From the NCBI GenBank assembly GCA_964457085.1, contig CAYWDM010000002.1, positions 116,037-180,036 of the forward strand: a DNA stretch of 64,000 nucleotides, written 5' to 3'. Of this stretch, positions 9,226-59,332 are shown in pieces. The notes beneath the pieces are model-generated. The model saw nothing but the letters and a program-made list of their open reading frames with translations. It searched no databases and was not told the DNA's origin. Position numbers and translations under genes: made by a program. Position 1 is the stretch's first letter. The number at the start of each line of letters is the position of its first letter. Source of the DNA: an uncultured Pseudomonadales bacterium (GTDB lineage: Bacteria > Patescibacteriota > Microgenomatia > UBA1400 > PJMF01).

Positions 9226-9357
9226 TTTTTTGAGTCTGCGACAGTGAATAGAGTGTCGTCTGGTATAATACCTCCATTAATATGGTTACTTTGTTGATTG
9301 GTGCGGTTGGTTTGGTTTCTGACCGATTACGAATCAAGCAAGGGTGAAAGGATACCT

Positions 9358-9627
9358 ATGGCACTCGATAAAGCCAAAAAAGACCAAGTTATCAAAGACT
9401 TTCAAATTTTTGAAGGTGACACTGGATCTCCAGAGGTTCAGATTGCTTTGTTGACTATTTCTATCCAAGAGCTCACTGAGCACTTGAAGAAAAACAAGAA
9501 AGACAATCATTCTCGCCGTGGTTTGTTGAAGCAGGTTTCGAAACGCCGTCGCTTATTGAGCTTCTTGCTCAAGAGAAGTGAAGAGCGTTACCAAGCTGTA
9601 ATCAAGAAATTAGGTTTGAGTAAATAA
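9358..9627 (+). CDS. rpsO: 30S ribosomal protein S15.
   Basis: 89 aa (MALDKAKK...[14 protein letters not shown]...HSRRGLL), classic S15. An AAAGGA RBS precedes the ATG at 9358; the track start at 9298 is too long. Confidence 0.93.
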
Positions 9628-9672
9628 CTTGATCGTTTGCACCGAAAAGTGCATTGACTTGAAAATAAAAAA

Positions 9673-9697
9673 CCACCTCGAAAGGGGTGGTTTTTTG
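9673..9697 (+). terminator. Rho-independent terminator after rpsO.
   Basis: CCACCUC-GAAA-GGGGUGG (GNRA tetraloop) followed by U6. Confidence 0.8.
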
Positions 9698-9768
9698 GTT
9701 GTACAAATAACGAGAGTGATCTGAGGTGAATGATTGATTTTGATCAGTAATCTCTGTACAGTGATGGT

Positions 9769-10134
9769 ATGGGTGTAAATGCTACTATTTCTAATACCAC
9801 AAATGCCGTTCAGTCTGGCATAAATGACCTCCCACTTTCAGCTGCAGAACAAGCATTGAAAGATCGAATTGATCGTTATAACCAATTACCCGAAGTTAAA
9901 GGTGAAGAGTTGGTAGATCAGTACTTGGATCTACAGACCACATCGACAGTGATTAAATCAGCTGTGCAGATGGTACAGAGCGATGCTCATACAAATTTGA
10001 TTGATCAAGATACAAAACAGACCATGACTGCAGAAATTAAAACTGCGAGCCAACATCTCCTTGGTCAAGCTTCTGATTTTTTAACTGTGTGCAAAGAGTA
10101 TAAAGACCAAAATGGTACAAAGAGTACTTCATAA
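9769..10134 (+). CDS. Hypothetical protein, 121 aa, first gene of the accessory region.
   Basis: ORF ending 6 bp before the 1047-aa gene, so probably co-transcribed. Confidence 0.45.
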   Translation: MGVNATISNTTNAVQSGINDLPLSAAEQALKDRIDRYNQLPEVKGEELVDQYLDLQTTSTVIKSAVQMVQSDAHTNLIDQDTKQTMTAEIKTASQHLLGQASDFLTVCKEYKDQNGTKSTS

Positions 10135-10139
10135 GTAAT

Positions 10140-13100: not shown

Positions 13101-13283
13101 AAAGGCTATGCACTCAACACTCAAGCAATCAATTTGAATTCAATAAAATCAGAGCCATTCAAGCAAATGCCAGGTGGTTCAGAAGATTCTGAACAGGTAG
13201 TGCTCAAAAAGAAACAAGAGCTTGAACAGAGACAGCAGAAACTAGTGATGGCAGCAACGCCTTCACCTCAGCAGTCATCGTAA
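10140..13283 (+). CDS. Large hypothetical protein (1047 aa), helical and charged, no recognisable catalytic motif.
   Basis: Uninterrupted 3.1-kb ORF with consistent composition and no signal peptide. Confidence 0.6.
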   Translation: MPNENIPFLKEIQKGYLPNAKNAESANAVFDLVADEAKSVMEMGEQAEVVSSAARQAINEVLKGEQVWTTVLESVQKKLMDGVGNMDSLRELRALQVFVKENLPILSQGRLEKSGTGEGARRERAEIVLEVQNMVVSSVAEKLADTKHLPPRITFVQSWQTAIPDLKRRLGVAGKTELSKEIDNLLDASTPSGNDALLQVNRMFSEAKITEFVARYEVKSEADSESATTMSPQGEVYAAFLQQQLESFDAGQHQIINTQVTQLEEQFLNDIFAGIWQRNGKLSKTLDELPDDRRGNRAISEIVKMSVEGGNLGDYLLALGQLSNEQRRIAFQNSYDAWNKVPRTAEEKSEAAKILLVAFDRETDGETNYAVEQLQKSAGNPDVVQLRAESKAELTKEAMGELTSDLFTIDLTNPSYRLYVPELVSKLIDKGVDTRRLAAAQLAKQEIFQTTITDILEKHMPKDVTQAQQFIDESRFALKNAQKLEYYRQGKDGFVIRKDLGERDNQVLERRKQQMFLVGFVRHLLNQPQHAPEAVTDMRQYFADAEKFGVTAKILIDIHNSVSTAIVAFNKKIEATSVGAYHRESAAIDFTDHMTRVMKIPPPLGVHMLTMTEAKGLENYGWGGEDRPSTGNVGIYTDNAEDSRDQVIAGYAVKDVLKRAQMKVDKSGIVPLLNTGAELDSFESRLARHESLLKPGFGGMYEGQQWHNVDRFDNLIKNDPYVDLQTKAAESLVEPDEQALKAAMEKLALTGKKGDELSSAVDSWGYHCENDYSRLGFAEKGLIRLGGGSSTLASEKHRYEQSAEQLTGEKFNLLESADRLRLRNTLEARKKAAQKKLATEIATKIKGISAKVVSGESMAAEYVKMMLKDPEMPSLEVVDYSQNYRTLKVIAADDINTVQTDPRLEVIYRTFQKAREAYGKRVYSKVNNLVANRAYGTETQAIEDAVGELRLKLGYTEARESMGYSREPSPPKVDLTPISRAIEPVLKKGYALNTQAINLNSIKSEPFKQMPGGSEDSEQVVLKKKQELEQRQQKLVMAATPSPQQSS

Positions 13284-13348
13284 ATTGCTGATTTAGTTTT
13301 GCCGATTGCTGACATGTTAATTTCAGAAATGAAGAAGTGGTGACTTCA

Positions 13349-14092
13349 TTAACTATTTGGCTTGAAGTCTTTTGGAAAAGGATGAGCTGAGGGGTAGTTT
13401 TGTGTCCAACCACCACCATATTTTTTGTTGGCCAAGAGTATAGCTCGCTCTCCGGGATCAATCACGATTAGCTTGCCATCAGCAGTGCGTAGTAGCCCTT
13501 TAGCTACCAAACCCTGAAGGATTGAGTCAAAAATTTCTTCTGGTTTATTATTTACCTCGTTGGTGATTTTGTTGGTGTCTTTTTTAGAGATCACTACTGC
13601 TGCCCATAATCGTTGATATGGCCCATCAGTATCATCTTCGCTTTTGCCAAGAAATGAAAAGGCAAACACAAAATCTCCATGTTCCCAGCCACCTTTTTTT
13701 GAATCACAGGGAATTAGATCAAAGGCTGGTTTTCCCAGTAACCCATCTATTACAGTTTGACCGCGACTGTGTGATTGCTTGTCAAAACAGGTTTCATCAA
13801 ATTTGCGAACAGGTACAAAGATACCTATTGTTTTCATGCCACTCTCCACTGCTTGTTTAAATGACTGATCTGCAGTGATTGCAGCTTTTATCTTGCCAAG
13901 AATTTCAGTGAGACCAGGGCTCATTTCTTGAAGCGGTTTGATTTTGTCTCCGTGTAGAGTTTCGCCAGTTCTGCCAAGAAAAAGTGGTGGTGTTTCCTGT
14001 TCCTCAACGCCGAAAAAACCTTCTTTTCCTGGTCCATTTTTGCCAATTCCTGCTTTTCCAATTCCTGCTTTGCCTGCAAGTGCCTGTGCCAT
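13349..14092 (-). CDS. Module protein A1 (247 aa), paralogous to the 19230..19985 protein and divergently transcribed from giant gene B1.
   Basis: The C-terminal half aligns with A2 (WEHGDFVFAF...SKKDTNK... versus EHGWALFVMSGKDTNK...). N-terminal GKAGIGKAGIGK micro-repeat. Confidence 0.6.
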   Translation of the reverse strand: MAQALAGKAGIGKAGIGKNGPGKEGFFGVEEQETPPLFLGRTGETLHGDKIKPLQEMSPGLTEILGKIKAAITADQSFKQAVESGMKTIGIFVPVRKFDETCFDKQSHSRGQTVIDGLLGKPAFDLIPCDSKKGGWEHGDFVFAFSFLGKSEDDTDGPYQRLWAAVVISKKDTNKITNEVNNKPEEIFDSILQGLVAKGLLRTADGKLIVIDPGERAILLANKKYGGGWTQNYPSAHPFPKDFKPNS

Positions 14093-14154
14093 AGTTCTGT
14101 CTCCCAGATCATATTAGCACTAAAAGCCTATGTTTTGCATCATAAAAATCAGCT

Positions 14155-17100
14155 ATGATTATTTTGGAAATGATATTGGAAGCGACAACAGTGACCGGAG
14201 CTAGGCAACATGGATTTGACGATCTTGTTGTGGCTCCTGAGGATCCCGTATCAGTACTCAGAGATTTGAATTGTGGTGAGGTGAGAACAAAAGATACCTC
14301 ATACCTAAAAAGCCAAAATGAAGTTTCGGATATGGTTAAGGCCACAAAAGAACTAAAGTGGCCAGGTTTTTGGTACGAATTACTGCAGGGAGCTTGGGAT
14401 TATAACGACTGGAGTAAAGGTAGTCCTCAAATTACCATTACTTTTGCTGGTGGTGAATCAATTTCACTGGCTCAGTTTGTCAGTGAGTGTGCTGCAGCTG
14501 GTGGTTTAAAAAAACTCAAACGTGGTCGAATTCAAGAAGTGAGTGTCAGCAATAACATTCGCGGAGATACTGGACTGCGACCTGTAAATGTGGTGTTGAC
14601 TGATCACGATGAAAAGGACGGTAAAAAACCACTGGGAACACATGGGCGAGGACTAAAAATTGCCAGTACTTGTGTTTTTGCTGGCGAATTGGCTAAAGCG
14701 ATTTCATATGAGTCATGGGTGCCAGAAATGGGTATGTGGTACGGTGAGGCCGGCATGCATCGGGATGAAGATGACCCAAAAGCTCCAGAAAATTTTCAAA
14801 TTAAATACAAACGAAATAAGGAATTGCAGACAGATAGAACTGTAATTAGAGTAACAGAGCCTGCAGAGGATTTGGTAGAAGCACTAATTTCATTTCAAGA
14901 TTGGTTTTTACCAGTCAATGGCAACTACCGTTTCCAAAGGATGGAGGCACAATCTGCAGATATGGTGCCTAATCGAGCTACGATTTTTGCCAACAAAAAA
15001 CACGCTCAAGAACCCCACGATGCTGCGGTTACTCCTTCAGAGCTGAGGTGGACGTATGGGCAAAATAAACTGGATGAGGCCGATGGTGTGGAACCACCTA
15101 GAGTCGAGATTCTATCGCGGGAATTATTGCCAACTGCACCAAATCCTATTAATTTTGTGTTTATTGATGGTTTGAGGGTGGGAGTGCCGGGAGCTACATT
15201 TTGTCAAATCTATGCTTTTTGGGGCTGGGGCAAAGGGACTAGTCATGGATACAATCCTGGTCGATCAAATGACTCGCTTAAAATGACCGGTGATATTGAC
15301 GATTTGTTGGCAAAAACATTAACGCTTAACACTAATGCAGCAGTTTTTTTGGAAATCATGGTTGCGAATTTAAATGGCCACAAAACGTATGAGGGTACAG
15401 AAGTGTCATATCTAGATGCTCTCGCTGGAAATGCAGCATCAAAGTCAGCACTGACACATGCATGGGAAGAATTAAGGATGGCAACTAATTCACCTGCAGA
15501 TGTTTTGATTACAGACTCTAAAGACGATTATGATCGGGCAAAGCGTGAGCAAAAAGTCGCTTTATTTTTGCCAAAACGATGGACAGCAATTTTGTGTGAG
15601 ATTATTCCAGGTTTGACTACTGCAGGCACGGTTTTTTCTCAAGAATTTGAAGAGGTTCAAGCGAAAGAGAGAGCCACTAGGCAGGCTATGGAACTGCAAC
15701 AGCGTGAAATGGAGGCTCGGGTTGTGAGAGAGAAGGAAGAGGCAATTGAACAATATAGAAAGAGCCGAGGTATTGTTAAGGAGGCATCAAATACTGGTGA
15801 AGTCATTAAAATGGCAAGACCAGAAAACAAACAAATAACGTTGCAACTGGCTTTATTGCATCTGGTGCATGCGTTGGCTATGGATGGTGGCAGAGTTGTA
15901 TCAGGCGATCCAAAGAAATTAATTCTCGAGATGCGAGCTGGTGGTTTTGATCAGTTGCCCAATAATACCAATTCGCTTGATGTACTTGGTGAATTTCTCA
16001 AATTGTACCTGGTGGTGTTTGGTAGTGACGCAATCGCAGAGTTAAAAATCGTGAGACAAGAAAAGGGAGTGTATTTCAATTTTGCCAGAAGTAAAAAAGC
16101 TGATTCTTTTGGCAACTACACCATTGAGGTACAGCAGGGTGAACTGGAACTACCACATGACAGTTGGGTGCAGTTAGAGTTGTCATTACCAGACACAACT
16201 GATGATAACGCATCCACTGGCGAAGCACGCCAACCACTAACTAGTGTTGATGGAGAAGATCTAGATTGTGCTGGATACCATGATGTGCTGACTCAGGCGA
16301 TTCGCGCCATCAGTAATTTGGATGGAACAGTTGATAGAAATGTCTATATGGCGAGTGAATATTTTGCACTGTATCCAGCAGCTGAAGCCAGAATGCGACT
16401 CCGCATGGAGATCGAAAAAACACAGCTTGAAATGAAGCTGTTATTCGATGAACAAAATAAATTGCGAGTGAGGTCTGGACTCAAGCCGTTGCCATATCCA
16501 GATGAATTAAAAACAACACGACCTCGGAAGGTGGGGCTTGGTGCTGGTATGGGACTACCGCCTGCGGAAGCCGACCTAACTCCAGCAGAAGAAGAGGAAA
16601 AGACTAAACAAAATCGTGAACATTCTGCAGCTCGAAAGTTACGTCAAAAAATGTCCAACATCTTGACGGGCAATGAAATTTTAGATGATGTTCCAGTCGA
16701 CTCTGAGATTATTAGTATGATTCACCCAGATAGCGTTCCGGGATTGAGTGAAAAAGGCGATGTGGAACGTATGCAGATGGTGCTGGCTGAATTACCCATT
16801 GGTGAGCGGATGAGAGCAACATTGGCTGAAAAGATGCGTGAGATTCTCAATCGTGTGGCAGTGCCAGACTTCTCACTCAGTTCAGGAGAATGGTTGCATC
16901 TGCGCGGATATTTAATTGATCACATTAATCCCGCTCATTCAATCACAACTACAGATAATTATGATGCTCTACCAGCCCTACCATTCACTGAGATGCAGGC
17001 AAATCCCTGTCTCAGATTTAATAAGAAAATTATTGCAGGACTATATTCAATTCCATGCCCACCTGGATTTCATCCGGTGGCAGTCAGTCATCCTGGCGGT

Positions 17101-18747
17101 CCAAATATTGGTTTACATTTCTCTGGCAATTTAGAGAAAAATGTTTTTGCAATGAATCTTGAAAAAGACGTGCCTCCGGGACTGAGTTTTTATTTTGAGC
17201 CGACCAAAACAGTTGATCGTTCATTACCCGATCAGCGTGAATGTGAAGTCACAGCTGATGAATCTAGTTTGGCAGAGCACTGGTTTAATTTGATTACCTC
17301 AATTCGTGAGTCATCACTAACTGATAAGCAAAAAGTTGATGTCATTATTCGTGCTTGGGTCAAGGCTTTTAACTACAGCAAAGAACAAAAAGCATTTGAC
17401 GAATATACAGATAGTCGAGGAATTAAAAAGAAATTTACTACAGATATCATTAACAAATCGATTGGCAACTGTGGGTATGCAACCCAAGGTATTTTAGGGT
17501 TACTTACTTTAATTGGGATTCCGACCAGAGATGTGGCGGCATTTCTGCATGATGGCGGTGGCAATTTTTCGCGTCAAGGAAATTATCACGGTATGGTGCA
17601 AGTCTATATTGATAACCGTTGGGTGTTGATCGAACCGCAAAGCGGATATGTTCAGGAAGGGTATGAAACTGAAGAACTACCCACAACTGTTCGTACTGAA
17701 TTTGAAAATTTACTCGGTGAGATTCCCAGAAGGTACTTAGAGTCAGCTCGAACTGTTGCGGCACTGCCTGATGTAGTTGGAGAAGATGAGAACGAAATAC
17801 CAACCATGGCTACTGGGCTTCGTGAGAGCTTGCGGGCTTTACTGCCATTTAGCTTACCAACATTTTCAAATCCATTTGCACTACTTCGTGACCGATGGAC
17901 TGAATTCATGCAGCGACGTCGAGAATCAAGCGGACGTAATCAGCACGAGGCAACAGTAATAAATCCCGCTGAGTTGCTCCGCGACTTAGCACAGGCAACA
18001 AATGCACTACAGCTAACTGAAGGAAAATTACCAGAGGGAATAACTCAATCTGAACCATTTACTGGTGCAGATATGGGACAGCAATTTTTGATTGAGCTGA
18101 GCACACAAATTACAGAGATGATGGCTGATTCCCCAACAACCATTCTTAATCCAGATGCTCCAATTGCCGAAAGATTAGAAGTAATGGAAGAGCAGTTATT
18201 GCATTACACTCGTTTGTTGCAAACTGTGCGAACAGCACAAATGTATGAGATGGTAACCGATGATCAAGTTGAGGCGATAAAGAATACTGTTGATAGACTG
18301 GGTCAGTTTGTGGTGCAGCTGCGAAATGAACAATCTGAGTTTGAGGATGCACAGCTACGAAAAGAATTATTCAGGGCAAATTTGAAAAAATCATTATTGC
18401 GGCTGAGTGCAGTTACAGCCGGAGCAACCATTGGAGCATTGTTGGCTCCACATATGAATGAGATCTTGTCACTGGGAGCTACTCAATTAGCTGCAACCAA
18501 ACAGCTGGTGGAATCACTGGCATCATCAGGACCAAATCTTCCCTCACCATCTGAAATTGCAACCAGTACCCAAGATTTTGCTCAAGAACAACTCCGAAAA
18601 ATCGAGTCCGTACCACAAAAACCAATTACTGAAACAATGCGACAGTATTGGCTGCTCGCATTAGTGGCAACAATACTAGCTGGCACACATACAGGAGCAT
18701 ATATGTTGGGTAAGACGAAAGAATCACCCGCAGAAATAGAGGATTAA
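14155..18747 (+). CDS. Giant protein B1 (1530 aa) with a transglutaminase-like (papain-fold) Cys/His core near the C-terminus and C-terminal hydrophobic segments.
   Basis: Conserved with B2 over the N-terminus (KDTSYLKSQNEV...WPGFWYELLQGAWDYNDW; IRGDTGLRP; GTHGRGLKIAS; YAFWGWGKG...NPGRSNDSLK). Cys motif IGNCGYATQG, then YHGMVQVYIDNRWVLIEPQ, and a Glu/Lys/Arg coiled central region. Confidence 0.7.
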   Translation: MIILEMILEATTVTGARQHGFDDLVVAPEDPVSVLRDLNCGEVRTKDTSYLKSQNEVSDMVKATKELKWPGFWYELLQGAWDYNDWSKGSPQITITFAGGESISLAQFVSECAAAGGLKKLKRGRIQEVSVSNNIRGDTGLRPVNVVLTDHDEKDGKKPLGTHGRGLKIASTCVFAGELAKAISYESWVPEMGMWYGEAGMHRDEDDPKAPENFQIKYKRNKELQTDRTVIRVTEPAEDLVEALISFQDWFLPVNGNYRFQRMEAQSADMVPNRATIFANKKHAQEPHDAAVTPSELRWTYGQNKLDEADGVEPPRVEILSRELLPTAPNPINFVFIDGLRVGVPGATFCQIYAFWGWGKGTSHGYNPGRSNDSLKMTGDIDDLLAKTLTLNTNAAVFLEIMVANLNGHKTYEGTEVSYLDALAGNAASKSALTHAWEELRMATNSPADVLITDSKDDYDRAKREQKVALFLPKRWTAILCEIIPGLTTAGTVFSQEFEEVQAKERATRQAMELQQREMEARVVREKEEAIEQYRKSRGIVKEASNTGEVIKMARPENKQITLQLALLHLVHALAMDGGRVVSGDPKKLILEMRAGGFDQLPNNTNSLDVLGEFLKLYLVVFGSDAIAELKIVRQEKGVYFNFARSKKADSFGNYTIEVQQGELELPHDSWVQLELSLPDTTDDNASTGEARQPLTSVDGEDLDCAGYHDVLTQAIRAISNLDGTVDRNVYMASEYFALYPAAEARMRLRMEIEKTQLEMKLLFDEQNKLRVRSGLKPLPYPDELKTTRPRKVGLGAGMGLPPAEADLTPAEEEEKTKQNREHSAARKLRQKMSNILTGNEILDDVPVDSEIISMIHPDSVPGLSEKGDVERMQMVLAELPIGERMRATLAEKMREILNRVAVPDFSLSSGEWLHLRGYLIDHINPAHSITTTDNYDALPALPFTEMQANPCLRFNKKIIAGLYSIPCPPGFHPVAVSHPGGPNIGLHFSGNLEKNVFAMNLEKDVPPGLSFYFEPTKTVDRSLPDQRECEVTADESSLAEHWFNLITSIRESSLTDKQKVDVIIRAWVKAFNYSKEQKAFDEYTDSRGIKKKFTTDIINKSIGNCGYATQGILGLLTLIGIPTRDVAAFLHDGGGNFSRQGNYHGMVQVYIDNRWVLIEPQSGYVQEGYETEELPTTVRTEFENLLGEIPRRYLESARTVAALPDVVGEDENEIPTMATGLRESLRALLPFSLPTFSNPFALLRDRWTEFMQRRRESSGRNQHEATVINPAELLRDLAQATNALQLTEGKLPEGITQSEPFTGADMGQQFLIELSTQITEMMADSPTTILNPDAPIAERLEVMEEQLLHYTRLLQTVRTAQMYEMVTDDQVEAIKNTVDRLGQFVVQLRNEQSEFEDAQLRKELFRANLKKSLLRLSAVTAGATIGALLAPHMNEILSLGATQLAATKQLVESLASSGPNLPSPSEIATSTQDFAQEQLRKIESVPQKPITETMRQYWLLALVATILAGTHTGAYMLGKTKESPAEIED

Positions 18748-18748
18748 T

Positions 18749-19237
18749 ATGATTAAACCACCCCAAATTGCAGTGACTTCATCGATCGGTGAGTATGATT
18801 TGTTTGAGTTGATGAATCTCAGCAAAATGCCACAGTCTCAAAAAGATACTTATTTATTGGATGCTAATGCCCTGATTTGGCAGGGTTTTTTGATGGAAAA
18901 ATTACCACATTTATTAACTCAACAACAGTATCAACAACTGCAGCAACAACTAAATGATGGCAAAACTCTCGAGGAAATTTTAGCTTGGTTATTGGAGCTG
19001 GTGCCGAATTTTACATATTTGCTGGCAGAATTCACTCGTGATGCAAAAGCAACATTGGTTGAAAAACAGTTTCAGAGTGAGATCTTGAGCTTGGAAAAAA
19101 TGCTCTCAACAGAATTAACAGAACAAAATTACCAGAAGATAAAAATCAGTCTTTCAAATTACAAGACTGCACTGCGACTTGCAGTACAACAAGAATGGCG
19201 TCAGATTATTGAGTTATGGCAGGCGTCAATTATTTAA
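18749..19237 (+). CDS. Module protein C1 (162 aa), small acidic helical protein paralogous to C2.
   Basis: Its start overlaps the B1 stop (TAATATGA) and a GAGGA RBS is present. EYDLFELM...ILAWLLELVPN...AEFTRDAK aligns with C2. Confidence 0.6.
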   Translation: MIKPPQIAVTSSIGEYDLFELMNLSKMPQSQKDTYLLDANALIWQGFLMEKLPHLLTQQQYQQLQQQLNDGKTLEEILAWLLELVPNFTYLLAEFTRDAKATLVEKQFQSEILSLEKMLSTELTEQNYQKIKISLSNYKTALRLAVQQEWRQIIELWQASII

Positions 19238-19985
19238 CGGTTGTTGTTGAGGCATAATTTTTTGGATATCTGCCTTTAACATGGGTATTGGAAAGAATAA
19301 TCACATGCTCGCCCATATCAACTTCAGCTTGCTCACCAGTACTCAGTTGTAATGGTTCATCTTCTGAAAGCATTCCAAGATCAACTAAATGCTCAAATAC
19401 TGCGGATGGATCCTTCAGACAATCAGCGGCAAATTTATTAGTGTCTTTACCAGACATCACAAATAATGCCCAGCCATGTTCTTGTTTTGGTTGAGAGCTA
19501 TCTTCAGTATCATTTGTAGCGGCGATTGCAAAATGAATCACTACTGCGTGGTCTTTTGATCCCCAGTTACCTAGTTTAGATTTGATTGGCTCTTCGACTG
19601 GCTCTTCGACTGGTCTTGAAAACAATTTTTTTACAAAACTAAGTCTAGTTTTTTGACTGGTCTTCGTTGTTCGTGTTGAGCTGTCTAAAAACTGAATAGG
19701 AACCACCTGTAGCCAAGTTGTGTCGCCAGGTTTCATTTGTGACTCTGGAATGGGGTCACCTGCCAAAACGGCTTGAATGTCTTTTCTTTTGAGTACATTT
19801 TCAATTACAGGATCAAGAATTAGTTTCTCAATTTGAGAAGGTTCAAGACCTCTATCACTATGTTCTGGTTGTGGCAGTTTAATAAACTTAAATTTAAATT
19901 TTATTTGACCGTCATCGACTTCTTGTAAATCGGGTTTGCCATCAAGATTTGGTTTTGAGGGAGTAGATTCTGAGATTTGAGTCAT
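19230..19985 (-). CDS. Module protein A2 (251 aa), paralog of A1, divergent from B2.
   Basis: Alignable with A1 over the C-terminal 120 aa. Contains a PVEEPVEEP micro-repeat. The 3' end overlaps C1 convergently by 8 bp. Confidence 0.6.
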   Translation of the reverse strand: MTQISESTPSKPNLDGKPDLQEVDDGQIKFKFKFIKLPQPEHSDRGLEPSQIEKLILDPVIENVLKRKDIQAVLAGDPIPESQMKPGDTTWLQVVPIQFLDSSTRTTKTSQKTRLSFVKKLFSRPVEEPVEEPIKSKLGNWGSKDHAVVIHFAIAATNDTEDSSQPKQEHGWALFVMSGKDTNKFAADCLKDPSAVFEHLVDLGMLSEDEPLQLSTGEQAEVDMGEHVIILSNTHVKGRYPKNYASTTTVK

Positions 19986-20065
19986 GCTAATTCCTTTTTT
20001 ACTCTACTTCAGAATACCACGGAGTACTTGATCTGGACAGTAACTATCAGCTATTCTGGAGAAGT

Positions 20066-23000
20066 ATGACATTAATGGATGTCCTTGGTTTTGGTGGCGT
20101 CATGTTTCGTGGCTCAAAGAAGTCAGGTGTGGATGGTGTGCCCCCCATGATTCCAGTTGAGATGGGTGACCCGCAGGCAGAGCTACGCAATCTCGGCCCA
20201 GAATCAAAGGTTAAGGGTACTTCATATAACGATCAGCAGAACGAAGTACGAGAGATGATTGATGCTACCAAAGAAAAGCGTTGGCCAGGTTTTTGGTATG
20301 AATTACTGCAGGGTGCATATGAGTACAACGATTGGAATCGGGGATTACCACGGATTTTAGTATATTATGCCGGAGTGGCTGAACCAGTGAGCTTGACTCG
20401 GTTTGTCTCTGATCGTGGTCGATTTTTCCATCGCAAAGTTGAAAGAGTTGAAATCAAAAACTATATTCGAGGCGATACTGGACTACGACCGCATAATGTC
20501 GCCGCAACTCTTCATGAAGAAAAAGATAATCAAGTTGGTTTGAGTGCTCATGGACGTGGGATGAAAATTTCATCCACTGCAGCCGCAGGTCATTTGGCGA
20601 AAGGCATCACTTTTGAGTCATGCGTACCTGGTATTGGTGCTTGGTTTGGTCGTGGTGAGATTGCACGGGATGAGGAGGATCCACGACCTTCAGATACATT
20701 CCAACTGCGGTATAACAATAATCCTGCATTGAGAGCAAAAGAGACCATTTTTACCGTACTTGAACCAAATAGTGCTGCTTTGAAAGCCTTGTCTGATTTA
20801 CCCAAATGGTTTTTACCCACGAATCCCGCATATCCAAGCTATCGTCTTGATGCAGAGCCAACCGCAACACGACCCAATAAAACTACTATATATGCTAACC
20901 AAAAGTTTGTGGGAGCTGAGAATAGTCTCGCTTTCTCTGAAAGAGAATTAAATTTATTTGGAAATAGTGGATTAAAATCTGAAGCTAATGCAGTTGAACC
21001 TGCTCGGGTTGAAATATTACCGGATAACTTGACTGGAAAGCGACGGGGCAAAATCGACTACGTATATGTTGATGGATTGCGAGTGGCAGTTGAGGGTGCC
21101 CAGTTTGCTAATGTGTATGCCTTTTGGGGGTGGGGCAATGGTGATCATGGTTTTAATCCGCGTCGTTCCAATGATTCCTTGAAGTTGGCAAATGCAATGA
21201 ATTTTTTACTAGGTGCCACGTTGTGTCGTTGTCCAAATCCTGAGGTATTTTTATCCATTCTACGTTCAAATTTGAATGATAAGGCCACCTTTGAAGGGGG
21301 TACCGGCATTTTTGAAAGACATTGGTACGACCTTTCAAAAAGTATGACTGGTGAAGCAAAAGCTGCCATGAGTGCTGCTTGGGGTCAGTTGACTACCGAA
21401 ATTGGTGTCAAAGGCAGAGTGTATGTCACATCTGAAAAAGAATCAAAGCAACGAGCCAAGCGAGAGAAAAAACCAACCATTTTGATGCAGCAGAACTGTT
21501 TAGCAATGTTGATGGTATCGAGATCTGATCTAAGGACTGTTGAGTCGGTGTTTGAAGATGAGGCCAAGGATGCAGAGGCACGTGAGGCTCAATTGAAATG
21601 GGAGAAAGATAAATTAATTCGTGAAAAAGAAGAACTGAAAAAAGAGGCTAAAAATAGAGACGAATATCTAAAGTTAGAGGCGGCAAAGGAAGCCGAGGCT
21701 AACGCCAAAAAGCGAACTGGTATTAAAGAGTATGCCGAAAGTACTGGAGAATTTCTCCGAGTGGCAGCACCCGATGATCCATCAATTGCAGTTGAGATGG
21801 CAAAAATAAATTTAATTAATTTATTTATGCTCAACCAAGGCTCTTTTAAACTAGAAAAAATTGGCCTTTTTGCTAAAACCGGGAAATTGGTAATTGATTT
21901 GCAGATGCCTGAGCTGGTGACGCTGCCGAGAAATGTTAAAGACATGGGACCGGTTGGTGATTTTGTGTTAAATTTTTTAGCCGCTGGTTCCACGACTGCT
22001 ACAGCCGAGGTGAGGTATGTGCGCAATTCAGAGGGGGTCTATTTTCATTTAGGTCGGTCGATGATTGACGAAAGGATTGATAAGTTTGGTAACTTCAGGA
22101 TTTTTGTGAATCAGGGTTCACTAGACATGACCGACAAACATCTAGTGAGAATCACACTCGATTTAGGAGAAAATGATGAGACAAGATTTAACGGTGAAGT
22201 GGCAAAGATATTTGAGTCATTGCAAAAGGCTGATGGCACTCCTGATGTAGATCGGTATCTGGAAAGTCAGTATTACCATGATTTTCCACCAGGTGAAGAT
22301 AGGCTTAAAGAAAAACGCAAAATGGAAGCGGAGCTACAGCAATACGAAAAGCACTTAGCTGAAGAGAATAGACGTCGACGTCGTGTTGGCCTGCCGCCAT
22401 TACCGAGCAAATACAATGCCAAATCAAGATTTGGTGGGCATGACGAGTTTGAAGATGAACCTGCATCTGGAGGAAGAGCCAAACTCCCCGCACAACGTGA
22501 TCGCAAAACCTTAGATCGTATTAGACGTTCTGAAGAACGAGCGATCGGTGATTCTGGTATCGATATCCAAGATGCGATCTTATCGCTGATGCACCCAGAT
22601 GCCAGGCCAGGAATTACTACGCATGGCACTGAGAAGCGACGGCGCATGGTACAAGAATCACTGTCTGGAAACGAGCGGCTTAGAAATGAAGCTGCAGCTC
22701 GGGCTAGGGAGATTTTTAAGCGACAATTGATCCCAGATTGTTCGATGTCGTCTAGTGAGTTTAGTCGGGTGAGACCATACCTTATTGACCATATCGACGA
22801 TGAAAACTTTGGCACTGACGATTACGACATCTTGAGTGGTTTTGAGTTTGGCCAGTTGAGTAATTTGCCCAAATTGAGGTTCAATAAACCAATTGGTTCC
22901 GGACTAGGCTCACTCCCTTGCCCTCCTGGGTACAGGCCAGTTGGGTATTATCACCCAGAGGGCGAGATTAAAGGACTGCATTTTTCAGGAAATTTTGAAC

Positions 23001-24136
23001 GCAATGTTTTTGCCATCTCATTACCTCGTGGTATTGATAAAGGCCTAACGGTCTACTATCGAAAGTTGAAATCATTTGCTGATACCACAGAGCCGACGGA
23101 AGAAAATCGTCGTTGCAGAGTGAAGGTGGAAACATTAAATGGTCCATGGTCTGAGCTGTTGATTGCATTACGCGATAGTCCTTTAAATGAAAAACAAAAA
23201 GCCGACATTATCATTCGAGCTTGGTCTCAGCGGGGCTTTATCTATGATAAGTCAGAGGCAGGACATCGTAAGTACGACCCGTATGGCTCGATTGATAGCC
23301 CTGAGTTTATGAGTGCTATTCTTAATTTTGGAAATGGTACTTGTGGGCATGCGGAAAAAGGTTGGCAGGGTGCGGGGACTGCTTGTAACTTGGCGGTTCG
23401 AAAAGTTACCAGTTATCTTGCTGGTGCTAATGGCGGTTTCTCGATGCGTGAAAATTTACATGGCTTGATACAGGTCTACATTAAAGATAGGTGGGTATTG
23501 GTAGAGCCACAAGTCGGATATATAGATCCTGGATATGAGTTAGAAGAAATACCAGCTCCATATCGTGAGAAATTTACTCGTTTGATTGAGGCGATACCTA
23601 ACGCAAAAGTTACTTCCCCAGAGCGTTTATCAGCGTTGCCAGATGTGCTTTCTGAAAACACAGAAAATTACACCAGCATGATGGAAGAATTAAGAATGAA
23701 ATATGATGAATATTTTGGTGATGGAGAACAGCTCACGCTCAGTGACTTGATGGTAGCTGTGCGTTCCGGTTTTGTCCAATTTGACAAACGCAAACTAGCA
23801 CTCTCACTTGCTAAATATTCAGCTCTAACCTTAGCTGGGGCATTTGCAGTACATGAAATTACACCAATGATTCCGAAGTTAGCTGAAATGACATTACAGC
23901 TTTTGGACTCAATTCCTCCAGAAAAATTAAGAAATATAGCAATTGGAACCATAGTGTCCATAGTCGCAATATCATATTTAGGTACCGGGAAGATTGGATT
24001 TGAGATCGGAAAATATATTGAAAGTCGTCGGTTAAGTTTAGCTTTTGCTTCCGATGAAACAGCAGCACTTCCAGATAGTTCAAGTGATGGTGGTGAAGAG
24101 AGCCCTTTGCCTGCGATACTACCAGTAGTAGACTAG
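20066..24136 (+). CDS. Giant protein B2 (1356 aa), paralog of B1 with a transglutaminase-like Cys/His core and C-terminal transmembrane-like helices.
   Basis: Shares the motifs WPGFWYELLQGAYEYNDW, IRGDTGLRPHNV, SAHGRGMKISS, YAFWGWGNGDHGFNPRRSNDSLK, GNGTCGHAEKGW and LHGLIQVYIKDRWVLVEPQ with B1. Confidence 0.7.
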   Translation: MTLMDVLGFGGVMFRGSKKSGVDGVPPMIPVEMGDPQAELRNLGPESKVKGTSYNDQQNEVREMIDATKEKRWPGFWYELLQGAYEYNDWNRGLPRILVYYAGVAEPVSLTRFVSDRGRFFHRKVERVEIKNYIRGDTGLRPHNVAATLHEEKDNQVGLSAHGRGMKISSTAAAGHLAKGITFESCVPGIGAWFGRGEIARDEEDPRPSDTFQLRYNNNPALRAKETIFTVLEPNSAALKALSDLPKWFLPTNPAYPSYRLDAEPTATRPNKTTIYANQKFVGAENSLAFSERELNLFGNSGLKSEANAVEPARVEILPDNLTGKRRGKIDYVYVDGLRVAVEGAQFANVYAFWGWGNGDHGFNPRRSNDSLKLANAMNFLLGATLCRCPNPEVFLSILRSNLNDKATFEGGTGIFERHWYDLSKSMTGEAKAAMSAAWGQLTTEIGVKGRVYVTSEKESKQRAKREKKPTILMQQNCLAMLMVSRSDLRTVESVFEDEAKDAEAREAQLKWEKDKLIREKEELKKEAKNRDEYLKLEAAKEAEANAKKRTGIKEYAESTGEFLRVAAPDDPSIAVEMAKINLINLFMLNQGSFKLEKIGLFAKTGKLVIDLQMPELVTLPRNVKDMGPVGDFVLNFLAAGSTTATAEVRYVRNSEGVYFHLGRSMIDERIDKFGNFRIFVNQGSLDMTDKHLVRITLDLGENDETRFNGEVAKIFESLQKADGTPDVDRYLESQYYHDFPPGEDRLKEKRKMEAELQQYEKHLAEENRRRRRVGLPPLPSKYNAKSRFGGHDEFEDEPASGGRAKLPAQRDRKTLDRIRRSEERAIGDSGIDIQDAILSLMHPDARPGITTHGTEKRRRMVQESLSGNERLRNEAAARAREIFKRQLIPDCSMSSSEFSRVRPYLIDHIDDENFGTDDYDILSGFEFGQLSNLPKLRFNKPIGSGLGSLPCPPGYRPVGYYHPEGEIKGLHFSGNFERNVFAISLPRGIDKGLTVYYRKLKSFADTTEPTEENRRCRVKVETLNGPWSELLIALRDSPLNEKQKADIIIRAWSQRGFIYDKSEAGHRKYDPYGSIDSPEFMSAILNFGNGTCGHAEKGWQGAGTACNLAVRKVTSYLAGANGGFSMRENLHGLIQVYIKDRWVLVEPQVGYIDPGYELEEIPAPYREKFTRLIEAIPNAKVTSPERLSALPDVLSENTENYTSMMEELRMKYDEYFGDGEQLTLSDLMVAVRSGFVQFDKRKLALSLAKYSALTLAGAFAVHEITPMIPKLAEMTLQLLDSIPPEKLRNIAIGTIVSIVAISYLGTGKIGFEIGKYIESRRLSLAFASDETAALPDSSSDGGEESPLPAILPVVD

Positions 24137-24160
24137 ATATAAATAAATATACATAAACCT

Positions 24161-24709
24161 ATGGTTACTGAGATGGCTCCAACAAAATCAATAGACGATT
24201 ACTCAGTTTTTGATTTGATTGGTGTTGAGTTAACACCAGAAGAACAAGAAAGCTATATCTTGGAATTAAATGATGAGGTATGGACTCGGTTTATCGAACA
24301 ACGGTTACCGTTTTTATTGACCGAAACTCAGTTGGATGAGCTGCGTGACCAACTTACTGAGACAATTCCATTTGATCAGATATTAACATGGCTGCAGCAG
24401 CTAGCTCCAAACACTCCAGAATTAGTTGCAGAATATACCCGTGATGTTAAAACTGAAGCCATTGAGAAGAGTTTGCTCGCACAATTGGCTCAGTGTGAAA
24501 AAATTCTAGCTAATGAAATTTCTGAAGAACATCGACTGCAACAACAAGAGCGACATGAACGGCTGCAGGCTGCTATTGGCTACGCACAACAGCAACTGTG
24601 GGATGATGTCGATCGTGTCCTCAACAGCTCAGAACCATTTGTGATAGGTAGTGAGGGATATGCAATTAATAAAATCGATTCAGTTGAAGTAGATGAGGAA
24701 TCAAAATAA
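24161..24709 (+). CDS. Module protein C2 (182 aa), paralog of C1.
   Basis: DYSVFDLIGV...ILTWLQQLAPNTPELVAEYTRDVK aligns with C1; same position relative to B2. Confidence 0.6.
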   Translation: MVTEMAPTKSIDDYSVFDLIGVELTPEEQESYILELNDEVWTRFIEQRLPFLLTETQLDELRDQLTETIPFDQILTWLQQLAPNTPELVAEYTRDVKTEAIEKSLLAQLAQCEKILANEISEEHRLQQQERHERLQAAIGYAQQQLWDDVDRVLNSSEPFVIGSEGYAINKIDSVEVDEESK

Positions 24710-24712
24710 ATC

Positions 24713-25321
24713 ATGATTGAAAATAACCAAGCCACATCAGCAGTTGGAAGTAAAATCAATCTGGCAGATGTGCCAAAAATGCCAGAGAATAGTTCGCCAG
24801 GTATCAAAGCTGAAGTTGAAACACACCTGCAGGTGGCGGTTGATACCATTGAACATGCCTTAGCTGCATTACCAAATGCTACTCCACAAGAGATTAATGA
24901 CCAACTCAAAACGATTCAAGGACTTCGTGACCAAGTCAATCAAAAAAACCAGTCCTGGCAACAACGATTAGAAGCAATTCGGGCATTGAATCAACAAATC
25001 AATGCTTTCAAGGCAGGAGCAAGAGAGGCAGCGGATGTACGACCACCAGCAGGGACACTACGAATTAATAGTGCTTCCATGAGGGCTCTTCTTGGTACGC
25101 TTGGCGTTTCATCTTTACCTGCTTTCGATCACGATGTTTTAAGTGCGACCTCAACTATAGGTGTTAATTTAAATCAAGCTGAAGTCGAATCACTTCGAAA
25201 AGAGCGAGATGCTCTCGGTGATGTACCATTAGAGCATACAGGTGCAATGGATTGGATCATTGCCAAACTCGATGAAGCCGCTGAGGCAGTTCGTGCAGCT
25301 GCGAGATTAACTGCAACATAA
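24713..25321 (+). CDS. Hypothetical protein (202 aa).
   Basis: ORF 4 bp after C2, polar/helical. No recognisable motif. Confidence 0.45.
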   Translation: MIENNQATSAVGSKINLADVPKMPENSSPGIKAEVETHLQVAVDTIEHALAALPNATPQEINDQLKTIQGLRDQVNQKNQSWQQRLEAIRALNQQINAFKAGAREAADVRPPAGTLRINSASMRALLGTLGVSSLPAFDHDVLSATSTIGVNLNQAEVESLRKERDALGDVPLEHTGAMDWIIAKLDEAAEAVRAAARLTAT

Positions 25322-25349
25322 TTTGATATCTTAAAAGATAAGGATATAT

Positions 25350-25940
25350 ATGTCTGAAATAAATGGCGTTAAAGAACTCGAATCAAGATTGAGTGAAAGT
25401 GCAAAGCGGAATTTAGATGTACAGCGAAGTGTGTATGAGCACCAAGATGCTGAATCATTACGGGAGAGTATTCAAACATTTAATGCCCAAAACGGATCGC
25501 CTGAAAGTACTTTTGCTTGGCTGAAGCAGCGAGCAGACAATCATCCTAGCGATGTTGGTCATCATGTTGCCCCATTCGATGGTGAGAAATGGGATACGTA
25601 TGCCGCCATGATGTTGGCAGGTCTTGAGGTGGTAGCGACAAATCCTGAGTTGGCAGAGATCGCTCAGCCAGAGCATTTTTTACAGGTGTTGCAGCTCATT
25701 AGCGACCACGTCAAAAATTCAGGATTAAAAATCGGCGAGAAGCTTAAGCTTTTTGGTTCTCCAGCTCAATTAAAAATTGATTGTGCCACATTTTTAGAGA
25801 TGGGAAAAATACTGATAGCTAACCAGAGTAAACTGGAGCCAGAATCAGCCCCAGTATCCGCCCCAGTATCCGCAATTAGCCATCTGGATTTGGATGATGG
25901 CCCTCTGGGTCAACATGGTCAAGGTGTAAAGGTTTCCTAG
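25350..25940 (+). CDS. Hypothetical protein (196 aa).
   Basis: ORF with a short SAPVSAPVSA repeat near the C-terminus. No recognisable motif. Confidence 0.45.
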   Translation: MSEINGVKELESRLSESAKRNLDVQRSVYEHQDAESLRESIQTFNAQNGSPESTFAWLKQRADNHPSDVGHHVAPFDGEKWDTYAAMMLAGLEVVATNPELAEIAQPEHFLQVLQLISDHVKNSGLKIGEKLKLFGSPAQLKIDCATFLEMGKILIANQSKLEPESAPVSAPVSAISHLDLDDGPLGQHGQGVKVS

Positions 25941-26233
25941 TAGTCTTTTTGTTATTTTGGTTACTTCTTATCGAATAGTAGACATTACTACAGCTATTGC
26001 TGTTGTGGCTCTGTTATAATTACCCAGTAAGTAATTTGGCTCGTCAGAGGATGAGTCTAGTTTAATTTTGGAAAACGGTTGAGAATTCAAGAGAGATGAT
26101 GAGGATGGGTGATAACTCCAGTTGGCATTCAAATAGCACAACTCGGACACTTTCATTGCTTGTCTTTTCTCCAGAATGCTCACGTTTTCCCCTAAGTTGT
26201 CAGTGATCTGGCAGCAACACAGAAAGGACTGTT

Positions 26234-28813
26234 ATGTCATATCCGACATACGGTAACACACTCCACCAAGATATTGCGGTGGGTGATAAGGTAGTACATA
26301 TTGAAATTGGCAAGTTCAGCCAACAGGCTGCTGCGGCAGTTTTGGCCACTTGTGGCGAGACCATGGTGCTCTGCACTGTTGGTTTGGGTCGTGAGACTGA
26401 ACTCGGATATTTTCCATTGTCAGTTGAGTTCGTTGAGAAACTCTATGCCGGTGGCATTATCAAGGGTTCTCGCTGGGTGAAGCGTGAGGGTCGACCAACT
26501 GATGAGTCTATTCTCAAAGGTCGAGTCGTTGATCGCACCATGCGACCATTGTTCCCAGATGGTTTAAAGAATGAAGTCCAGATCATTAACACTGTCTTTT
26601 CATATGACGGTGAAAATGATGCTGATATGGTAGGCATGATTGCAGCTTCGGTTGCATTGCAGATCAGTGAGATTCCTTTCGCAGGACCAATTTCTGGTAT
26701 GCGTATTGGCTATCGCAAAGCTGACGGCCAATTCTTGTTTAACCCAACTCAAACCGAGCGCAAAACTAGTGATCTAGACTTGATCGTTTCAGGTTCTGAC
26801 ACTAAAGTAGTGATGGTTGAGGCAGGTGCTAACGAAGTTGCTGAATCAGTGATTATCGAAGCCATCAGTAAAGCTCAAGAAATCTTAGGTGGCGTTTGTG
26901 CAACAATCACCAAGATTACTGAGCAAATTGGTAAGCCAAAATTTGCAGTCAAGACTTTGCCAGCAGAAGACGTGGCTCGCAACGACGCTTGGAAAGCAGC
27001 AATTCTCAAGAACTTCAAAAAAGAGATTCACGACATGACCATGAAGTTGGGTGTTTTGGAGCCAACTGGTGTCGAGGCATTTGTGCCTACAGTGACTGCT
27101 AAACTCAATGAGGGTTTAGATGCTGAAGCTGAGGGTGTGGTTTTAATCACCGACAAGCAAGCTAAGGGTTTTGTGTTTGATTTAATGCAAAAAGAAACTC
27201 GTCGTATGGTGATTGAGGACGGTGTTCGTCCCGATGGTCGCAAAGCCGATGAAATTCGCCCAATCTGGTGTGAAGTTGATGTTTTTGCACGCACTCACGG
27301 TAGTGCCATGTTCAAACGTGGTGCCACTCAAGCAGTTAGTGTTGTGACTTTAGGTAGTCCATCACTTGGTCAATATGTTGAAGATTTGGATGGCGAGTCG
27401 GTGCACCACTATATGCACCACTACAACATGCCTCCTTTCGCCTCTGGCGAAGCTGGTCGCATCGGTTCACCCAAACGTCGAGAAATTGGTCATGGTGCCC
27501 TAGCTGAGCGTGCCATCATGCCAATGTTGCCAACACAGGAAGAGTTCCCATACACCATTCGCGTGGTTAGTGAGATCTTGAGTTCCAATGGTTCAACTTC
27601 TCAAGCTTCAATCTGTGGTTCTACCATGTCATTAATGGCTGCAGGTGTGCCTTTGAAGAAACCAGTGGCAGGTATTGCTATGGGTTTGATGAGTGAGGGC
27701 GACAAAAACGTAGTGCTTTCCGATATCCAAGGTCTGGAAGATCACGATGGTGATATGGACTTTAAAGTGGCTGGTACCAAAGATGGTATTACCGCTTTGC
27801 AGATGGATATTAAGCTCACCGGTTTGAATTCAAAGATTCTCACCGAGGCTTTAGAGCAAGCACGCATCGGTCGCTTACACATCATGGACAAGATGTTAGC
27901 TTGTATTCCTGAGCCAAGAAAACAACTCAGTATCTACGCTCCAAAGATTCAACAGATCACCATTCCAGTTGGAAAGATTGGTGAGTTAATCGGACCAGGT
28001 GGCAAGATGATCAAGAGTATCATCGAGAAATCAGGTGCTGACATCGATGTTGATGAGGACGAAGAGCGTGGCTTGGGTATCGTTAACATCTCTTCACCAG
28101 ATCAAGAAAAGATTGATGTTGCAGTCAAAATGATTGAAGGCATTACTCGAGAAATCTTGGTTGGAGATGAGTTCGACGGTCCAGTTGTTCGAATTGAAGC
28201 ATACGGCTGTTTTGTAAACATCACTCCAGCAAAAGACGGTTTGGTACATGTCAGTGCTATGGCAACTGAATATGTCTCTGATCCAGAGTCTATCGTGAAG
28301 ATGGGCCAAGTGGTTCATGTTCGCGTCAGTGAGATCCAAGATGACGGCAAGATCAAACTCTCAATGTTAACCAAAGAACAAGAAGACGCTGCCAAACAAA
28401 GTGGCGGTAGTCGAGGTGGTTTCGGTGGTGACAGAGGTGGTGATCGCGGAGGTCGCTCAGGCGGCTTCAGTGGTGGACGCTCTGGTGGTTTCGATCGCGG
28501 TGGTGATCGAGGCGGCCGTGGAGGAGATCGTGGTAGTCGAGGTGGTTTCGGTGGTGACAGAGGTGGTGATCGCGGAGGTCGCTCAGGCGGCTTCAGTGGT
28601 GGACGCTCTGGTGGTTTCGATCGCGGTGGTGATCGAGGCGGCCGCAGTGACTTTGGAGGCAGTCGGGGTGGAGATCAGCTAAATCGCGATGCAAGTCGTG
28701 ATTCGAGTCGAGATGTTCAGCCCATCGTCAATGAAAATGCACCTGCAAAATCAGACACCACACGAGATCAGATGAACAACTTAAGTGACATTTTTCAAAG
28801 TAATTTGACCTAA
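26234..28813 (+). CDS. pnp: Polynucleotide phosphorylase with an unusual roughly 145-aa RGG/RGD-rich low-complexity C-terminal extension.
   Basis: Two RNase PH domains, KH (GKIGELIGPGGKMIK), S1 (VVRIEAYGCFVNI), then the GG(F/S)(D)RGG repeats. Confidence 0.93.
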   Translation: MSYPTYGNTLHQDIAVGDKVVHIEIGKFSQQAAAAVLATCGETMVLCTVGLGRETELGYFPLSVEFVEKLYAGGIIKGSRWVKREGRPTDESILKGRVVDRTMRPLFPDGLKNEVQIINTVFSYDGENDADMVGMIAASVALQISEIPFAGPISGMRIGYRKADGQFLFNPTQTERKTSDLDLIVSGSDTKVVMVEAGANEVAESVIIEAISKAQEILGGVCATITKITEQIGKPKFAVKTLPAEDVARNDAWKAAILKNFKKEIHDMTMKLGVLEPTGVEAFVPTVTAKLNEGLDAEAEGVVLITDKQAKGFVFDLMQKETRRMVIEDGVRPDGRKADEIRPIWCEVDVFARTHGSAMFKRGATQAVSVVTLGSPSLGQYVEDLDGESVHHYMHHYNMPPFASGEAGRIGSPKRREIGHGALAERAIMPMLPTQEEFPYTIRVVSEILSSNGSTSQASICGSTMSLMAAGVPLKKPVAGIAMGLMSEGDKNVVLSDIQGLEDHDGDMDFKVAGTKDGITALQMDIKLTGLNSKILTEALEQARIGRLHIMDKMLACIPEPRKQLSIYAPKIQQITIPVGKIGELIGPGGKMIKSIIEKSGADIDVDEDEERGLGIVNISSPDQEKIDVAVKMIEGITREILVGDEFDGPVVRIEAYGCFVNITPAKDGLVHVSAMATEYVSDPESIVKMGQVVHVRVSEIQDDGKIKLSMLTKEQEDAAKQSGGSRGGFGGDRGGDRGGRSGGFSGGRSGGFDRGGDRGGRGGDRGSRGGFGGDRGGDRGGRSGGFSGGRSGGFDRGGDRGGRSDFGGSRGGDQLNRDASRDSSRDVQPIVNENAPAKSDTTRDQMNNLSDIFQSNLT
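28411..28662 (+). repeat. Tandem direct repeat: 126-bp period, about 2.1 copies, 108 bp identical, encoding the RGG tail of PNPase.
   Basis: Sequence 28411-28518 is identical to 28537-28644; a third partial unit starts at 28663. Confidence 0.9.
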
Positions 28814-28832
28814 TGTTTTCTTGAATAGTTTG

Positions 28833-28861
28833 AATTAGAAAAGCCCTCGGCGAAAGCCGAG
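28833..28861 (+). terminator. Rho-independent terminator after pnp.
   Basis: GCCCUCGGC-GAAA-GCCGAGGGC followed by UUUGUGG. Confidence 0.8.
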
Positions 28862-29014
28862 GGCTTTGTGGTTCATACAGGATCCAAGCTTGACTGGTGA
28901 CCAGGAGCCCGTAACTCATTAGTACTGATTCCAAGCAGTAATTTGCGTTATAGTTATTGTGTTAGCGCAAACTCAGCGTCTATTTATTTGGTGTCATCTT
29001 ATTTAATTTGAGCT

Positions 29015-58076: not shown

Positions 58077-58084
58077 TTTAAATG

Positions 58085-59255: not shown

Positions 59256-59332
59256 TGGTGGACAATACAGGACTCGAACCTGTGACCTCACGAATGTGAA
59301 TCGTGCGCTCTAACCAGCTGAGCTAATTGTCC
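59256..59332 (-). tRNA. tRNA-Val (anticodon CAC), CCA encoded.
   Basis: Manual fold: acceptor GGACAAU/AUUGUCC, D-arm GCUC-AGCUGGUUA-GAGC, anticodon stem CACGA/UCGUG with loop UUCACAU, T-arm ACAGG-UUCGAGU-CCUGU. Confidence 0.85.

Follow-up and report, generated by a model that had tools for sequence, protein, structure and literature searches.

The question raised by the pnp gene described here is why its product, polynucleotide phosphorylase (PNPase), carries on past the S1 domain for a further 147 residues, in a tail filled with Arg-Gly-Gly (RGG) triplets and partly encoded by a perfect tandem repeat with a period of 126 bp. The gene lies in a 64,000-nucleotide stretch of contig CAYWDM010000002.1 (assembly GCA_964457085.1), the whole of which was analysed and is referred to below as the window. 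PNPase is a homotrimer in its solved structures, and the KH and S1 domains form the RNA-entry face of the trimer. The best explanation as a whole, to which we assign a probability of roughly 0.6, is that this is an RGG tail typical of the clade, containing a homogenised repeat and serving as an auxiliary RNA-binding arm.

The gene is an ordinary housekeeping pnp of a Patescibacteria (candidate phyla radiation, CPR) bacterium, the lineage being assigned from the names attached to homologues and GTDB loci, and its product is a bona fide PNPase. Over residues 13-712 the protein scores 851.3 bits against the NCBIfam model NF008805 (cut-off 471) and 840.4 bits against TIGR03591 (cut-off 525), and the Pfam domains follow in the order RNase_PH, RNase_PH_C, RNase_PH, KH and S1, with S1 ending at residue 711. 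The active-site motifs NGSTS (residues 452-456) and DHDGDMDFK (residues 503-511) are intact; we take these to be the phosphate- and metal-binding motifs of the second PH domain, matching the catalytic residues of the E. coli enzyme. An AlphaFold2 model of the PNPase monomer, built with a 50-sequence alignment, is confident over the core, with predicted local distance difference test (pLDDT) scores mostly of 80-97. Canonical bacterial PNPases (E. coli, Caulobacter and Streptomyces; 3cdi, 4aid, 1e3h and 5yjj) belong to the same family, with the same domain order and motifs and E-values down to 1e-180. Alignments with the solved bacterial enzymes end at query residues 709-729, within about 20 residues of S1, whereas the window protein adds 147 disordered residues; the alignment with human mitochondrial PNPase (9njb) reaches query residue 766.

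The tail comprises residues 713-859 (nucleotides 28370-28810), close to the extension of about 145 residues that a preliminary description of this DNA had reported. It opens with a short helix containing the sequence TKEQEDAAKQ, after which come an RGG-rich block, a variable linker and a short C-terminal tip (Table 1). Altogether the tail holds 12 RGG triplets and eight phenylalanines. Between residues 727 and 803 there are five overlapping matches to the tri-RGG motif and eight to the di-RGG motif, a tri-RGG being reportedly defined by Thandapani et al. in 2013 as RGG-X0-4-RGG-X0-4-RGG. Residues 725-859, tip included, have pLDDT values of around 30 (29-36) and no predicted secondary structure in the AlphaFold2 model, and in a charge-hydropathy analysis the tail falls on the disordered side, with a mean hydropathy of 0.35 against a boundary of 0.43-0.45. 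Its low-complexity sequence is thus predicted to be intrinsically disordered. Asn, Asp and Ser abound in the last 47 residues, whose net charge is just -3, so that their portrayal in the preliminary description as a serine/aspartate-rich acidic end was overstated.

Tails of this kind proved to be general among the relatives of the window enzyme. All of the 120 nearest homologues (57-100% identity) have R/G/D-rich tails, 45-147 residues long with a median of 70 and with a median R+G content of 57%; the few named entries among them are mostly Patescibacteria, Woesebacteria and Pacebacteria, plus one mislabelled as Vitreimonas. The statement that PNPase normally ends after S1 is therefore correct for the solved model enzymes but not for this lineage, and in the window the reading frame runs through the tail uninterrupted. 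In the GTDB set, made up of one-genome-per-species contigs, 26 loci with more than 52% identity had a readable tail, and in every one of them, loci titled Patescibacteria, Paceibacterota or Woesebacteria included, it was Arg-rich and mostly of the RGG type. Six of them, at 57.5-59.2% identity (L008, L011, L012, L014, L015 and L026), have N/R/S-rich tails with no or only one RGG; half of these six bear the title Paceibacterota or Woesebacteria, and the other half are Pseudomonadales by a mistaken label. Among the GTDB loci, the PNPases of Peptococcaceae, Desulfitobacterium, Acholeplasmatales and Campylobacter have no tail and end at S1, and G/R-rich tails occur also in some Thermoanaerobaculia and Planctomycetota. 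An exhaustive HMMER search with the core only was followed up for the 150 nearest 50%-identity cluster representatives out of about 3,000 strong matches. The S1 end could be located in 141 of these, of which 68 have tails of at least 30 residues and 16 have RG-rich tails, a fraction of about 1 in 9 that comes from the nearest hits and may not hold for all bacteria. On these comparisons, the R/G-rich PNPase tail is the norm of the clade and not a peculiarity of the window genome.

Several of the GTDB loci (L003, L007, L008, L010 and others) are titled uncultured Pseudomonadales, Limisphaerales or Methylococcaceae. Their PNPase similarity and tail type are those of Patescibacteria, and the titles probably reflect mislabelled taxonomy of metagenome-assembled genomes (MAGs).

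What is shared by these tails is above all their composition. Pooled over the homologues, they consist of 40% Gly, 23% Arg, 10% Asp, 8% Ser and 5% Phe, with aromatic residues making up 6.7%. For R/(R+K) the tails have 0.98 and the cores 0.42, for D/(D+E) 0.88 and 0.41, and Ile, Leu, Val and Met together account for 0.9% of tail residues against 28% of core residues. At the DNA level the RGG block of the window gene has a GC content of 63.6%, compared with 41.6% for the window, while its GC content at third codon positions (GC3) is 32%, compared with 42% for the core. As GC3 is low, it must be the amino acids that create the GC peak, in opposition to the mutational bias, and a GC-biased process could be discarded as its cause. 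A genome-wide compositional bias towards Arg and Gly could also be set aside. The window contains no RG-rich open reading frame (ORF) other than pnp, its RNase J, NusA and IF2 having no RG-rich region, and across 30 related loci, 267 kb in all, the sole RG-rich ORF outside the pnp coding sequences is one of 76 residues, antisense within the pnp of L016, which is regarded as spurious. The composition of the tail looks to be under selection.

One short sequence element recurs near the start of the tail and may be a second conserved short motif: R-P-[PSA]-F-R-G-G is found in 62 of the 120 homologue tails. It is absent from the window protein and from P0002 (L081) and P0004 (L082), whose tails start with SRGGFGGDRGG or GGGDRGG, and appears as a degenerate RPSFGG in P0003 (L083).

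Two further features of the RGG-coding DNA were dismissed. A Val/Glu/Ala-rich ORF of 93 residues in another frame (28401-28682, plus strand), with nothing to mark it as a gene, results from the GGT/GAT/CGN periodicity. The favourable RNA fold predicted for the repeat region (z = -4) is explained by the recurring Asp-Arg codon pairs, GATCG(N), together with the duplication.

The repeat itself was examined with Tandem Repeats Finder (TRF), which reported 1.9 copies with a period of 126 bp and 100% matches at 28406-28644, confirming the 126-bp tandem repeat of the preliminary description. The two stretches that had been put at 108 bp are indeed identical, although base by base the identity extends over 113 bp. 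The repeat is in frame, with a unit of 42 codons and an exact protein-level repeat of 38 residues, GSRGGFGGDRGGDRGGRSGGFSGGRSGGFDRGGDRGGR. TRF also detected a weaker sub-period of 63 bp within it, which makes the 126-bp unit an old doublet. Apart from a 74%-identical segment of two paralogous large ORFs, this is the sole long near-exact repeat in the 64 kb, and chance is therefore no explanation for it. Among the 120 homologues the window tail is the longest, and no other has an exact internal repeat of more than 19 residues.

The history of the repeat was read against L081, the closest relative for which DNA was available, an independent Logan assembly with the same genes downstream of pnp. 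Its PNPase core is 92% identical to that of the window at the protein level and 82% at the nucleotide level, while the tail, at 142 residues against 147, is only 69% identical. L081 likewise has two units, but these have diverged from each other, and their FDRGGDRGGR anchors lie 38 residues apart instead of the 42 in the window. Compared with L081, the window unit has 80.5% identity to unit 1, about what the core divergence would give, but only 66-68%, with gaps, to unit 2. Since the window copies show no differences in 113 bp, compared with 19.5% divergence from the orthologous unit of L081, they must have been made identical very recently.

An unaltered simple tandem duplication would leave identity over at least 126 bp, or else a junction that came from one of the flanks. 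The repeat shows neither: identity covers 113 of 126 bp, and the 13-bp junction between the copies matches the 13 bp before copy 1 at 4 of 13 positions and the 13 bp after copy 2 likewise at 4 of 13. As L081 moreover already has two units, a simple recent duplication is ruled out. Of the two biological origins offered in the preliminary description, recent expansion or gene conversion, the recency is borne out, fresh duplication is not, and conversion is favoured. The best reading of the sequences is that recent gene conversion, or an equivalent recombination, homogenised two older units in the lineage of the window, the copy number being that of the assembly. Degenerate arrays, in frame and with periods of 12-42 bp, are found in other homologue tails and fit growth by duplication followed by decay.

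Taken together, these observations suggest a tail that would be retained for its composition and not for its exact sequence, and whose evolution would proceed through the tandem duplication of short units in frame, their decay and their homogenisation. In the window lineage, gene conversion would most probably account for the recent transfer of a 113-bp tract from one older 42-codon unit to the next, which left the repeat perfect and the tail, at 147 residues, longer than any other seen. As for what the tail does, we infer RNA binding, as we would any higher-order role. Three tails per PNPase trimer would emerge beside the KH/S1 ring at the point of RNA entry, and, being Arg-rich and containing aromatic residues, could act as auxiliary, sequence-nonspecific RNA-binding arms that capture or hold RNA. 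The decay machinery seen in the window includes RNase J (52338-53999, 553 residues, with beta-CASP and RNase J C-terminal domains), encoded 23 kb downstream of pnp. A preprint on Saccharimonadia proposes that PNPase may help Patescibacteria to salvage nucleotides from RNA; we speculate that such salvage would make efficient RNA capture by PNPase valuable.

Several points weigh against the explanation as a whole. The tail has no detectable homology to characterised RGG domains: a tail-only search of 5.8 billion proteins gave no match, nor did a comparison with PDB sequences, and BLASTP against a FUS RGG3 segment gave no alignment, in searches where composition correction or masking removes sequence of this type. 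Asp nearly balances Arg in the RGG block (+8 over 90 residues), which makes it a weak polycation that could serve protein-protein contacts or self-association instead. The 47 non-RGG residues that in this clade follow the RGG block, with their conserved tip, hint at a docking role as well. Finally, the exact copy number of the repeat is that of a single assembly.

The alternative that survives best, although we consider it distinctly unlikely, is that the three RGG tails of each trimer turn PNPase into a multivalent scaffold that phase-separates with RNA, forming a minimal decay body where an RNase E-type scaffold may be lacking, with each added unit tuning the saturation concentration. The tails have a sticker-and-spacer make-up, with Arg and Phe/Tyr in Gly/Ser spacers, the R/(R+K) of 0.98 and aromatic content of 6.7% given above, tri-RGG motifs and predicted disorder, on an enzyme that is itself trimeric. 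There are also precedents. The R/G-rich C-terminal intrinsically disordered region (IDR) of the E. coli helicase CsdA promotes, and such regions drive, its condensation with RNA (bioRxiv 10.64898/2026.09.17.752289), in Type II RhlB an N-terminal extension, likewise disordered, drives liquid-liquid phase separation (PMC13462270), and PNPase is a client of RNase E condensates, which stimulate its activity (PMC10412687; PMC13462270). The case is nevertheless one of purely compositional inference; many homologue tails have only 45-60 residues and few RGG triplets and may be too short or weak to scaffold, and the interspersed Asp lowers the net charge. In a broader form of the same idea, PNPase in Patescibacteria, and convergently in some other phyla, would have acquired a eukaryote-like RGG domain and with it become its own scaffold, condensing with RNA into a minimal body for decay or nucleotide salvage without an RNase E-type organiser, its tail length tuned rapidly by in-frame gain, loss and conversion of repeats, of which the window gene would be a fresh case; this, too, we hold to be doubtful.

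An improbable alternative to the RNA-binding arm is that the tail is mainly a flexible tether for its C-terminal motif, DIFQSNLT, which would be offered to RNase J, a helicase, the ribosome or some other partner, while the RGG block would act as a spacer and make secondary contacts. L081 has the identical tip behind 40 residues that have diverged, and tips of the type F-[QKR]-S-x-[LM] occur in 16 of the 120 homologues (P0002, P0003, P0005, P0023, P0027, P0038 and P0044 among them), from different sublineages and in tails otherwise almost without aliphatic residues. With the R/G-rich part present in essentially all 120, however, a tip found in just 16 cannot explain the conserved feature, and the tip is unstructured in the AlphaFold2 model.

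There is similarly only a slim chance that the second unit, or the copy number, stems from faulty short-read assembly of the metagenome over a low-complexity tandem repeat. Identical 113-bp tracts 126 bp apart would form a de Bruijn loop for any k below about 113, the assembly is of the metagenome type, and the protein occurs once in the collection. On the other hand, assemblers tend to collapse repeats, not to expand them, the junction is unique sequence, as are the flanks on either side, and the independent assembly of the 92%-identical L081 shows the two-unit layout with a tail of 142 against 147 residues; the frame and the conserved tip would in any case be kept at any number of units. Least probable of all is neutral growth, in which the tail would be tolerated, functionless junk produced by replication slippage in GGN/CGN/GAT-rich DNA. 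Tail length (45-147 residues) and sequence are indeed highly variable, degenerate in-frame arrays are common and L081 has 69% identity in the tail against 92% in the core. Against this reading, all 120 close homologues have a tail whose frame is kept, RG-rich tails recur in other phyla, and the tails, whose GC3 is low and whose genomes are AT-rich, almost always have Arg in place of Lys and Asp in place of Glu.

Comparison with known systems places the tail among other disordered appendices of RNA enzymes. The DEAD-box helicases CsdA/DeaD and CshA are, like the window PNPase, RNA-metabolism enzymes with an Arg/Gly-enriched, low-complexity C-terminal region. They differ in having a helicase core instead of a phosphorolytic exonuclease, there is no demonstrable homology, and Asp is abundant in the PNPase tail (DRGG), which in this clade continues into a non-RGG segment. 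RNase E, of the degradosome and of bacterial ribonucleoprotein bodies (BR-bodies), likewise has a disordered, Arg-rich appendix on a ribonuclease, one that binds RNA and organises decay, whereas in the window the appendix is on PNPase itself and is much shorter. No membrane-targeting helix or known partner-binding motif was identified in the window tail, and no helix is predicted within its disordered part.

With the RGG or glycine- and arginine-rich (GAR) domains of eukaryotes, such as those of fibrillarin, nucleolin and FUS/EWS/TAF15, the tail shares a motif grammar of tri-RGG, RGGF and DRGG repeats and aromatic residues in a Gly matrix, and it resembles the RGG3 segment of FUS. To our knowledge arginine methylation, a regulator of eukaryotic RGG domains, is not known in these bacteria. 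The likeness is most likely one of convergence. The GAR domain of fibrillarin is reported to be needed for the ribonuclease activity of that protein (PMC7290794).

Other bacterial PNPases have been extended at the same end. Those of the Bipolaricaulota/Thermotogae type have a folded second S1-like domain at the C-terminus, a different module in a different lineage; in four MAGs with such labels (L052-L055) the extension is about 170-225 residues long and the second S1-like domain lies between R/E-rich repeats of the type EREPRGE. Planctomycetota and Thermoanaerobaculia, again different lineages, have PNPase tails that are G/R-rich or else rich in poly-Gly and Pro. Two Planctomycetota MAGs (L058 and L060) have tails of 109-145 residues made mostly of poly-Gly with scattered Arg and Pro and a conserved end, FDDFDPMSGPGDG...RRRRRR. 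These sequences show the PNPase C-terminus to be a recurrent site for the addition of RNA-binding modules.

The features of the pnp locus are collected in Table 1. The hairpin downstream of the stop codon was flagged by a consensus scan as well, on the minus strand.

Table 1. Features of the pnp gene and of its tail-coding region (window coordinates; residues are those of the encoded PNPase; MFE, minimum free energy).
Feature	Position	Strand	Remarks
Shine-Dalgarno-like AAAGGA	26223..26228	+	5 nt upstream of the pnp ATG; read from sequence
pnp coding sequence	26234..28813	+	single uninterrupted ORF, 859 aa plus stop; NCBIfam PNPase equivalogs far above cut-offs
PNPase core, residues 13-712	26270..28369	+	RNase PH, RNase PH_C, helical region, RNase PH, KH, S1
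Linker helix after S1, TKEQEDAAKQSG, residues 713-724	28370..28405	+	AlphaFold2 helix 714-724; conserved in L081
RGG/DRGG-rich disordered block, residues 723-812 (90 aa)	28400..28669	+	net charge +8
Repeat copy 1, 113 bp	28406..28518	+	identical base by base to copy 2
13-bp junction between copies, TGGAGGAGATCGT	28519..28531	+	matches neither flank
Repeat copy 2, 113 bp	28532..28644	+	identical base by base to copy 1
N/D/S-rich non-RGG variable linker, residues 813-851 (39 aa)	28670..28786	+	poorly conserved relative to L081; predicted disordered
C-terminal tip DIFQSNLT, residues 852-859	28787..28810	+	identical in L081; candidate short linear motif
Hairpin 3' of the pnp stop, probably the pnp terminator	28832..28874	+	MFE -29.5 kcal/mol, z = -6.7 versus shuffles

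Upstream, the window departs from the arrangement seen in a relative. The S15-like ORF rpsO (9298-9627) lies some 16.6 kb from pnp (26234), whereas in L082 rpsO is only about 350 bp upstream of pnp. The intervening block (9298-25940) consists of large ORFs with almost no Pfam matches, including ones of 1047 residues, 1530 residues with a transglutaminase-like core, and 1356 residues, and several of about 200 residues. Because rpsO is so close to pnp in L082, the block looks like an insertion into a conserved nusA-infB-rpsO-pnp row; its proteins are possibly involved at the surface or in host interaction. Two of its giant ORFs (14155-18747 and 20066-24136) have in common a 100-nt segment (14314-14413 and 20237-20336) with 74% identity, and are therefore paralogues. 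The window also contains, on the minus strand, a tmRNA gene (58082-58516, 82.5 bits) and a tRNA gene (59259-59332).

No description of an RGG tail on PNPase was found in the literature searched, which lacks many subscription papers and offered only analogies, and PNPase is here a known enzyme with a widespread but apparently unreported appendix. The textbook architecture of the enzyme stops at S1, yet the tail is present throughout a whole, largely uncultivated group and in about 1 in 9 of the more distant clusters sampled. The perfect repeat is of local interest only, showing how such tails change length. If the tail does bind RNA or condense, it would provide a compact case of RNA decay, and possibly of nucleotide salvage, being organised in reduced genomes without a large scaffold, and a clean bacterial model of RGG function without arginine methylation.

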